Notes under the pieces: generated by a model
Databases searched by the model: none
Told to the model about the DNA's origin: nothing
What the model saw: the letters and a program-made list of their open reading frames with translations, nothing else
Made by a program: the position numbers and the translations under genes
Virus record (IMG/VR): IMGVR_UViG_3300028996_000031
Origin: a virus
Lineage: Duplodnaviria > Heunggongvirae > Uroviricota > Caudoviricetes
Strand: one strand, 5' to 3'
DNA: 8,147 nt
Shown: in pieces, positions 1,683 to 2,030 of the stretch
Position numbering within the stretch: the stretch's first letter is position 1
Layout of the letters: each line of letters begins with the position of its first letter

Positions 1683-1711
1683 TTGCAACATTGATTTCGT
1701 AACGTTATTAT
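1683..1711 (+). promoter_or_regulatory. Sigma70-type promoter for the tRNA array
   Basis: TTGCAA (1683-1688), 17-bp spacer, TATTAT (1706-1711), then a GC-rich discriminator CCTGCGCCC (1712-1720) as in stable-RNA promoters. The first tRNA begins at 1721. Confidence 0.5.
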
Positions 1712-1720
1712 CCTGCGCCC

Positions 1721-1796
1721 GGCCCTTTAGCTCAGTGGTGAGAGCGAGCGACTCATAATCGCCAGGTCGCTGGTTCAAATCCAGCAAGGGCCACCA
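1721..1796 (+). tRNA. tRNA-Ile2 (anticodon CAU, lysidine type) or tRNA-Met; 76 nt with encoded CCA
   Basis: Cloverleaf folded by hand: acceptor GGCCCTT/AAGGGCC, D-arm GCTC..GAGC, anticodon loop CTCATAA (CAT at 1754-1756), T-loop TTCAAAT, discriminator A plus CCA. C4-G69 and C5-G68 in the acceptor stem and overall resemblance to ileX-type tRNA favour Ile2. Confidence 0.85.
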
Positions 1797-1797
1797 G

Positions 1798-1874
1798 CCG
1801 CCACTAGCTCATCAGGAAAGAGCGTCAACCCTTTAAGTTGAGTGTGCGAGGTTCGAGTCCCCGGTGGCGGTCCA
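1798..1874 (+). tRNA. Atypical tRNA-like gene, anticodon TTT (Lys-like) with C instead of U at position 33; possibly a variant or pseudo-tRNA
   Basis: Cloverleaf: acceptor CCGCCAC/GTGGCGG (starts with C1-G72), D-stem GCTC/GAGC with GG in the loop, anticodon stem TCAAC/GTTGA (perfect), loop CCTTTAA (1830-1836), T-loop TTCGAGT with one A-C mismatch in the T-stem, discriminator T plus CCA. One substitution from a Lys(UUU) loop, two from an Arg(UCU) loop. Confidence 0.55.
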
Positions 1875-1876
1875 GT

Positions 1877-1952
1877 GCCGACTTAGCTCAGTAGGTAGAG
1901 CAACTGACTTGTAATCAGTAGGTCACCAGTTCGATTCCGGTAGTCGGCACCA
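1877..1952 (+). tRNA. tRNA-Thr (anticodon UGU), 76 nt with CCA
   Basis: Acceptor GCCGACT/AGTCGGC, D-arm GCTC..GAGC, anticodon stem ACTGA/TCAGT with loop CTTGTAA (TGT at 1910-1912), T-loop TTCGATT, discriminator A plus CCA. Confidence 0.85.
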
Positions 1953-1955
1953 TAT

Positions 1956-2030
1956 GCGGGCATCGTATAATGGCTATTACCTCAGCCTTCCAAGCTGATG
2001 ATGCGGGTTCGATTCCCGCTGCCCGCTCCA
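1956..2030 (+). tRNA. tRNA-Gly (anticodon UCC), 75 nt with CCA
   Basis: Acceptor GCGGGCA/TGCCCGC, anticodon stem TCAGC/GCTGA with loop CTTCCAA (TCC at 1989-1991), T-loop TTCGATT, discriminator T plus CCA. Confidence 0.85.

Follow-up and report, generated by a model that had tools for sequence, protein, structure and literature searches.

Clusters of tRNA genes downstream of the antiterminator gene Q have been known in lambdoid phages since the 1990s and are usually explained as helpers in the decoding of rare codons. In the Shiga toxin (Stx) phages, as represented by 933W and the Sakai prophage Sp5, the cluster consists of ileZ, argN and argO and lies downstream of Q, PR' and tR' and upstream of the late genes. 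Lambdoid and P22-like phages have Asn(GUU) and/or Thr(UGU) tRNA genes downstream of Q (PMC3636060). The present analysis concerns a four-tRNA array that occupies, together with its putative promoter, positions 1683-2030 of an 8,147-nucleotide stretch of Caudoviricetes DNA (IMG/VR record IMGVR_UViG_3300028996_000031; the whole stretch is referred to as the window). Public genomes already have the array annotated. It represents a variant of the late-region tRNA cluster known from lambdoid phages, and it is a chimera of two phage and two host-derived tRNA genes. On balance, sequence comparisons favor a working tRNA operon of mixed origin in which the second gene most likely encodes a lysine tRNA that arose from an arginine tRNA.

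All four tRNA genes were called on the plus strand by ARAGORN and by the Rfam model RF00005 (gathering score 29 bits). They are tRNA 1 at 1721-1796 (anticodon CAU, Ile2 type, ileZ; 72.5 bits), tRNA 2 at 1798-1874 (anticodon UUU on an argN-family body; 44.4 bits), tRNA 3 at 1877-1952 (Thr, anticodon UGU, equal to the host thrU; 73.8 bits), and tRNA 4 at 1956-2030 (Gly, anticodon UCC, equal to the host glyT; 64.9 bits). ARAGORN reported no tRNA genes beyond these four in the whole window. A preliminary description, made from the letters of the window, had proposed an array of four tRNA genes separated by 1-3 nt between positions 1683 and 2030, and this was borne out: the spacers are 1, 2, and 3 nt, position 1683 is the start of the -35 hexamer and position 2030 is the final base of tRNA-Gly. 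The CCA end is encoded in each of the four genes and all four anticodons match A-ending codons (AUA, AAA, ACA, and GGA). Nucleotide U33 is present in tRNAs 1, 3, and 4, and tRNA 2 carries C33, as does every Lys-type copy that was seen. Minimum free energy folding of the four tRNAs as single sequences produced no cloverleaves and was uninformative.

The closest described relative is the Stx-phage cluster at the equivalent site. In both clusters ileZ comes first and is identical in sequence, with a homologous promoter (TTGCAN-17-TATTAT-CCTGCGCCC) ahead of it, the second genes are members of one family, and there is a terminator behind the tRNA genes. As the preliminary description had noted, the composition nevertheless differs from that of the Stx phages, which carry ileZ-argN(UCG)-argO(UCU): the second gene has the anticodon UUU and C33 here but UCG there, copies of thrU and glyT replace argO, the spacers are 1-3 nt compared with 1-13 nt, a structured trailer of 200 nt is added, and lysis genes instead of stx are found downstream. 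The different second anticodon and the replacement of argO place the array outside the ileZ-argN-argO type in the strict sense.

The origin of three of the four genes can be stated directly. The tRNA 1 gene is identical to the Stx-phage ileZ and 92.1% identical to the host tRNA-Ile (CAU) genes, and it is therefore of the Ile2 type and not a Met tRNA; the Ile2 half of the earlier Ile2/Met label was retained and the Met half was dropped, in agreement with the tRNA-Ile annotation given by PGAP. Its acceptor stem (GGCCCUU/AAGGGCC) contains C4-G69 and C5-G68, both of them body determinants of Ile2-type tRNAs (ileX/ileY type), in which TilS converts C34 to lysidine. A comparison with the host genes showed that tRNAs 3 and 4 are base-for-base copies of thrU and glyT in the order in which these genes occur within the host thrU-tyrU-glyT-thrT operon. 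In the host, the interval between thrU and glyT consists of 8 nt, tyrU (85 nt), and 116 nt (209 nt in total), whereas in the phage tyrU and both spacers are replaced by the trinucleotide TAT. The array further differs from the host operon in that thrT and tufB are absent and that the promoter and the flanks are phage DNA.

The remaining gene had been listed as an atypical TTT species and can now be specified as an argN-family arginine tRNA with a switched anticodon and C33. It aligns over its full length with the Stx-phage argN and is 84-90% identical to the phage Arg UCG and UCU forms, compared with 59% identity to the host tRNA-Lys (lysT). Its closest relatives are Arg(UCU) genes whose anticodon stem is the same; the anticodon loop differs from theirs by two transitions (CUUCUAA to CCUUUAA) that yield U35 and C33. 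No intermediate, with either U33 and UUU or C33 and UCU, was found among approximately 190 loci. Further oddities of tRNA 2 are C1-G72, U73, and an A51.C63 mismatch, and A20 is kept in the D loop. U35 is a major determinant for the lysyl-tRNA synthetase LysRS, and C35 is a major determinant for the arginyl-tRNA synthetase ArgRS. By these rules U35 predicts that tRNA 2 would be charged with lysine. The anticodon, which is the chief determinant for LysRS, is U34-U35-U36 as expected of a substrate, while A73 and a relationship to lysT are both lacking. By descent tRNA 2 is outside the tRNA-Lys gene family; it probably functions like a tRNA-Lys.

The second position of the array (slot 2) was surveyed by two scans of IMG/VR, one anchored on the T arm of tRNA 2 and one on the Thr-Gly junction. 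Slot 2 is always occupied by one tRNA body, with the anticodon Arg UCG (Stx type), Arg UCU, or Lys UUU and a few degenerate forms. Among the 112 junction-anchored arrays, UUU is found in 62 and UCU in 26, roughly five are odd or degenerate and a further 15 consist of Thr-Gly only, without tRNA 1 and slot 2. The cloverleaf of the slot-2 family is maintained (98.1% of the cells are paired, and five pairs are changed on both sides), compared with 29-55% pairing in slid controls. Nucleotide diversity (pi) was calculated for classified subsets, all junction-anchored loci together being too heterogeneous. Within the 62 Lys-type arrays, pi is 0.0013, 0.0083, 0.0041, and 0.0025 for tRNAs 1-4 and 0.17-0.29 for the flanks. 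Within 35 arrays that share homologous flanks, the corresponding values are 0.0022, 0.0073, 0.0051, and 0.0008, and those of the trailer, the terminator and the downstream DNA are 0.021-0.038. Conservation of tRNA 2 is about equal to that of the neighboring tRNAs of the array; its anticodon loop and T arm are invariant in the 35 arrays with homologous flanks, and three of the four stem changes retain pairing as G.U.

Slot 2 takes unusual forms in several prophages. It is a clear pseudogene in the ZH193 prophage (L194), and in the MS 200-1 prophage (L195) a decayed ileZ is followed by an intact Arg(UCU) gene in slot 2 and a Thr-like remnant. In a diverged lineage (L170, L171, L139, L143, and L148), the slot-2 loops are short or odd and ARAGORN reports "Stop(tta)," "Phe(aaa)," or an undetermined tRNA. 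These genes are probably decayed copies, and they show how freely the slot changes.

We judge tRNA 2 to be a working tRNA with somewhat more confidence than doubt, and several observations weigh against it. C33 in place of the near-universal U33 is highly unusual for an elongator tRNA, and C1-G72 and the A51.C63 mismatch are unusual as well; position 73 is U where the E. coli tRNA-Lys has A; and the Rfam score is the lowest of the four (44.4 bits). Decayed slot-2 copies include an internal deletion (L093), a D-arm deletion in Lys-Arg(UCU) arrays, the pseudogene of L194, and a copy with several changes (L196). The low diversity of tRNA 2 could stem from a recent spread of the module rather than from selection, and the finding that two of approximately 8-12 differences from the Arg relatives fall within the 7-nt loop is not significant (P about 0.2, an estimate).

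These observations lead to the strongest of the alternatives, in which U33C and C35U inactivated an arginine tRNA that now persists as a dead passenger between the useful genes of a recently spread module, the array being in effect a three-tRNA supply unit (Ile2, Thr, and Gly). The combination of C33, U73, and A51.C63 with the lowest Rfam score (44 bits) would be expected of such a gene, tRNA 2 is the most variable of the four genes, slot 2 has clearly decayed in some prophages, the 15 of 112 arrays that contain only Thr-Gly do without it, and AAA is not a limiting codon (see below). However, tRNA 2 is three to five times less diverse than the noncoding DNA next to it, at about the level of the Thr gene that equals the host copy; its anticodon loop and T arm do not vary across 62 arrays, most stem changes retain pairing, and UUU is the commonest form of slot 2 (62/112). 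Moreover, C1-G72, U73, and A51.C63 are common to the Stx-phage argN and are therefore traits of the family rather than signs of decay. We regard an inactive tRNA 2 as less likely than a working one.

A role in codon supply was examined by comparing codon usage in the E. coli isolate F719, which is 100% identical to window positions 1-2310, between 56 host genes and the early genes, the late genes, and an orphan gene of the prophage. The odds ratio (OR) expresses the share of a codon within its amino acid relative to the host genes. In the early genes, ACA (OR 3.0, P = 2e-8), GGA (OR 2.2), and ATA (OR 1.8) are overused and AAA is not (OR 0.51), and in the orphan gene ATA, ACA, and GGA are significantly above the host. 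The orphan gene also contains a very high number of AAA codons per thousand, the share of AAA among its Lys codons not being significantly raised (OR 3.0, P = 0.08). In the late genes, ACA, GGA, and ATA each reach an OR of 1.3 (not significant) and AAA an OR of 0.67. The preliminary description had suggested that the array supplies rare codons for the late genes, and this part of the suggestion is weakly supported, since ATA, ACA, and GGA are significantly overrepresented in the early and orphan genes but show no significant excess in the late genes, and AAA lacks enrichment; the weak late-gene signal also detracts from the reading of the array as a working operon. Codon supply is a reasonable role for Ile2, Thr, and Gly, chiefly for the early and accessory genes, and under the favored reading these three would top up the tRNAs for codons that are overused there. 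It does not explain the Lys tRNA, because AAA is not enriched and the host has about six tRNA-Lys genes (median 6).

For the same reason we think it unlikely that codon compensation accounts for the whole array, that is, that each of the four tRNAs, Lys among them, adds to the supply for the A-ending codons of AT-richer phage and accessory genes and that evasion of nucleases plays no part. The four anticodons do all read NNA codons, the early genes overuse ACA, GGA, and ATA, and in the orphan gene ATA, AAA, ACA, and GGA are all frequent. Phage T4 too has Ile(CAU), Thr(UGU), and Gly(UCC) tRNAs, which can be counted in favor of compensation. Yet the share of AAA among the Lys codons lies below that of the host in both the early and the late genes (OR 0.5-0.7), the host is well provided with tRNA-Lys genes (approximately six) and the late genes, which are cotranscribed with the array, lack a significant enrichment. 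In phage SfI an ACA bias is present, which again fits compensation, and the Asn tRNA gene is not explicable by codon bias (PMC3636060). The clusters of SfI, Sf6, ST64T, phage 21, and HK639, with Asn(GUU) and/or Thr(UGU), resemble the array in being short, in occupying the same late-region site, in sharing Thr(UGU), and in having one member that codon bias leaves unexplained (Asn there, Lys here). They differ in their gene sets, and a sequence relationship is seen only for a Gly remnant and trailer in HK639.

The preliminary description had also mentioned that phage tRNAs can replace host tRNAs depleted by anticodon nucleases, an idea that in sequence terms suits the Lys tRNA. Under the favored reading, tRNA 2, whose body is unrelated to the host tRNA-Lys, could escape nucleases that recognize the host molecule, for example AriB of the PARIS defense system. 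AriB targets exactly Lys(UUU), Thr(UGU), and Asn(GUU); it cuts U36-A-A-U39-C40-A41 between C40 and A41 and uses U16 as an additional determinant (PMC11464382, PMC12409363). Cleavage is abolished by U39A and impaired by A41C and U16C (PMC12409363), and the tRNA-Lys of phage T5 escapes AriB (PMC11464382, PMC12409363). The host lysT and thrU read UAAUCA with U16, whereas tRNA 2 reads UAAGUU with C16, and because these replace the recognition site tRNA 2 should escape cleavage. The T5 tRNA-Lys(UUU), which neutralizes PARIS, is comparable in that it reads UAAACC at the same place and shares C16. The two cases differ in that T5 is a virulent phage with approximately 23-24 tRNAs for which resistance and rescue are experimental and not, as here, based on sequence, and in that tRNA 2 descends from an arginine tRNA and has C33. 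They also differ in the partner: as a copy of thrU that retains UAAUCA, tRNA 3 should be AriB-sensitive, and the absence of a resistant variant at this position tells against a defensive role of the array. Thr tRNAs are attacked as well by HepS, a prophage nuclease triggered by siphovirus tail-tip proteins (PMC13043305). The overlap of the phage Asn, Thr, and Lys tRNAs with nuclease targets is a suggestive coincidence and nuclease evasion by tRNA 2 is plausible. A bolder version is that a lysine tRNA proof against nucleases arose in temperate lambda-like phages of E. coli and Shigella when the anticodon of one of their own arginine tRNAs was switched (CUUCUAA to CCUUUAA), and that these phages carry it with Thr(UGU) in a constitutive operon; the prophage, and perhaps the lysogen, would then keep translating when PARIS AriB or PrrC destroys the host tRNA-Lys(UUU), and C33 would be part of the evasion. 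We offer this version as a speculation that is, taken as a whole, rather unlikely.

The preliminary description had called the array self-promoted. A predicted sigma-70 promoter lies at 1683-1711 on the plus strand (-35 hexamer TTGCAA at 1683-1688, a spacer of 17 nt and -10 hexamer TATTAT at 1706-1711). It is followed by the GC-rich discriminator CCTGCGCCC (9 nt, 1712-1720), and the first base of tRNA 1 comes straight after it at 1721, as had been described; sigma-70 hexamers followed by a GC-rich discriminator are a trait of stable-RNA promoters. Taken as a single sequence, the 9/12 match to the consensus is no better than chance (two such sites were found and 2.1 are expected). Of 27 unique upstream sequences, however, 24 have TATTAT at a constant distance from tRNA 1 and two more have it displaced by one base. 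In eight lineages that are more than 15% apart, the TTG of the -35 and the entire -10 are kept and the spacer positions are 50-70% conserved, the -10 conservation being partly built in because these lineages were picked for an in-register TATTAT. The promoter precedes the array in at least four different upstream contexts, which include different Q genes and a methyltransferase gene, and it therefore belongs to the tRNA module and is not a Q-specific PR'. The possibility that the TTGCAA promoter is PR' itself was rejected on the basis of these contexts, and in phage 606R7 the end of Q harbors a promoter-like site of its own.

Sy et al. 2020 (PMC7547250) describe a primary start site between tR' and stx2AB, mapped by differential RNA sequencing (dRNA-seq) during lysogeny, that drives the tRNAs of the Stx2a prophage Sp5 of strain Sakai. 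Within the interval between the Sakai tR' hairpin and ileZ, the sole promoter-like sequence is TTGCAG-17-TATTAT-CCTGCGCCC, directly before ileZ, which is the homologue of window positions 1683-1720 with the same -10 and discriminator. Activity was mapped in Sakai alone, and the window has the conserved sequence homologue. Based on this conservation and on the published Sakai start site, which lends the self-promoted label experimental support through a homologue, the promoter is taken as real. The alternative, that the promoter-like site is inactive in the window phage and the array is transcribed solely in the Q-dependent late transcript, draws on the chance-level 9/12 match of the single sequence; we consider it improbable in view of the hexamers and spacing that are conserved across diverged lineages and upstream contexts, the start site of the Sakai homologue, and a terminator ahead of the lysis or toxin genes that is sensible only if there is constitutive activity upstream.

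This terminator-like element, a hairpin (GCCCGCGTTTGCGGGT) with a T run, is located at 2238-2262 on the plus strand between the tRNA operon and the holin gene. Of 110 related arrays, 72 have a terminator hairpin, at a median distance of 207 nt past tRNA-Gly and with at least four unrelated stem sequences, and in the Stx phages it directly follows argO. Termination at this position would make sense because a constitutive promoter needs to be insulated from lysis or toxin genes. In lysogens, transcription of the favored operon would thus start at its own promoter and end at this terminator, shielding the lysis genes; after induction, Q-modified polymerase from PR' would pass both terminators and the tRNAs would be transcribed with the late message. 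RNase P would then cut the 5' end of each tRNA and 3' exonucleases would trim the 1-3 nt remainders. Short-spacer host operons such as valV-valW are processed by RNase P and 3' exonuclease trimming. The post-array terminator was also considered as a candidate for tR', on account of a likeness of the tail of the Stx-phage hairpin to the lambda tR', and was rejected since tR' is mapped upstream of the Sakai tRNA promoter; the hairpin behind the array is thus a second terminator. Another terminator-like hairpin with a T run was found by a hairpin search upstream of the tRNA promoter, at 1580-1600 on the plus strand (within 1574-1600). It resembles GAACCCGCCGATGCGCGGGTTTTTTTG, which lies approximately 25-50 nt into the Sakai PR' transcript (L197, 769-795), and on the basis of this resemblance the segment just upstream of the array may be a remnant of the PR' leader of another phage.

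The trailer between tRNA-Gly and the terminator (2031-2237, plus strand) is predicted to form a structured RNA of three hairpins with arms at 2037-2047/2072-2082, 2090-2105/2147-2162, and 2161-2169/2207-2215. The hairpins are perfect (11, 16, and 9 bp) and the folding z-score is -6.0 over the 207 nt. All helices are kept between two trailer clades that are approximately 75% identical, with 10 of 63 consensus pairs changed on both sides; the number of independent events behind these changes is small, since essentially a single divergence, that of the two clades, accounts for them. The trailer has no match in Rfam. A 39-codon open reading frame (ORF) that is annotated in the trailer of 606R7 was dismissed as coding, being frameshifted in the commonest variant. 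At 2337-2492 of phage HK639 (L198), an unannotated Asn(GUU)-like tRNA lies directly after Q-tR', and the 3' half of a glyT-type Gly tRNA is fused to the same structured trailer. Because the truncated Gly gene of HK639 is joined to the trailer, the trailer appears to travel with the Gly gene. It may be an undescribed structured RNA that is tied to the tRNA module, either a new small RNA or a processed 3' trailer.

A change of tRNA identity by anticodon shift has a laboratory precedent. Saks et al. in 1998 reportedly engineered the recruitment of an Arg(UCU) tRNA to Thr(UGU) in E. coli in this way. Slot 2 resembles this recruitment in that the identity would change through anticodon mutation while the body is kept, and differs in that the UUU form is an allele that occurs naturally and widely in phages and that is also changed at position 33. 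That tRNA 2 might instead retain its arginine identity and insert Arg at Lys codons, a low-level recoding of AAA/AAG, is very improbable: its body is 84-90% identical to Arg tRNAs and keeps A20 in the D loop, but by the identity rules given above U35 should switch the identity to Lys.

A literature search, outside which most subscription journals fell, returned no description of the array, of its chimeric origin, of anticodon switching in slot 2 or of a tie to tRNA-targeting defense. Likewise not described in the literature searched are the hybrid of phage and host tRNA genes that is trimmed almost exactly to the mature ends, the recognition of slot 2 as an evolving position in which one body occurs with UCG, UCU, or UUU, and a UUU form that is unexplained by codon supply yet fits in sequence what is expected of a PARIS-resistant tRNA-Lys. 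Should tRNA 2 be charged with lysine and withstand AriB or PrrC, common prophages would possess an intrinsic countermeasure to immunity that targets tRNAs, tRNA-based counter-defense would extend from large virulent phages (T5) to common prophages, and the switch from Arg to Lys would provide a clear-cut case from nature of a tRNA that changed its identity. With an inert tRNA 2, the array would be a moron of the usual kind that supplies codons.

The array is placed, as the preliminary description had it, within a late region. The 3' part of the late antiterminator gene Q is found upstream at 1-419 (plus strand; the full-length homologue in F719 matches PF03589 with E = 2.6e-52), and the P21-type holin gene S (2323-2538, plus strand; PF04971, E = 1.4e-35) is the first gene of the lysis cassette downstream, followed by DUF1327, lysozyme, and Rz genes. 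In F719 the order is a Q-type antiterminator, the orphan gene on the opposite strand, the four tRNAs, holin, DUF1327, lysozyme, Rz/Rz1, terminase, and head and tail genes, and Pfam confirms Q (PF03589), the P21-type holin, phage lysozyme, DUF2514 (Rz), a cold-shock domain protein, and Nu1. The gene order and the Pfam matches together place the array inside the late region of a lambda-like prophage. With modest confidence in this explanation as a whole, the segment is best described as a "moron," a mobile and compact tRNA operon that sits inside the late operon of a lambda-like E. coli or Shigella prophage.

Window positions 2310-8147 are 98% identical to strains other than F719. The whole window was not present in any one genome of the collections searched and is therefore considered a mosaic. 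At least 80% of the 348-nt segment is present in approximately 600 of the 5,426 complete E. coli genomes, and the array variant is found in between about one-ninth and one-seventh of such genomes. PGAP/RefSeq annotates the array in genomes as tRNA-Ile, tRNA-Lys, tRNA-Thr, and tRNA-Gly, and it is also present in three sequenced phages (606R7, 689R5, and PhiR47_1). Among species-representative genomes, the Lys-type anticodon arm is confined to E. coli and Shigella flexneri.

The AT-rich orphan gene between Q and the array (about 534-1454, minus strand; approximately 306 codons, 35% GC) is annotated as a hypothetical protein in F719. Neither Pfam nor PADLOC returned a match for it, and three further small ORFs had no match in PADLOC. 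The gene is very rich in ATA, AAA, ACA, and GGA, the codons that are read by the tRNAs of the adjoining array. Masked sequence (runs of N) at 624-650, 2903-2960, 4480-4489, and 5538-5547 breaks up the orphan gene and the stretch that follows the DUF1327 gene, and the ORF coordinates in these places are approximate. A partial DicF-like match on the minus strand (8032-8061; 20 bits, E = 0.93) is far under the gathering score and probably due to chance. Downstream of Rz, within the late region, positions 4492-4896 match the cspA thermoregulator 5' untranslated region over its full length (RF01766, 113 bits), and the match includes a cold-shock protein gene of 71 codons (4635-4850, PF00313).

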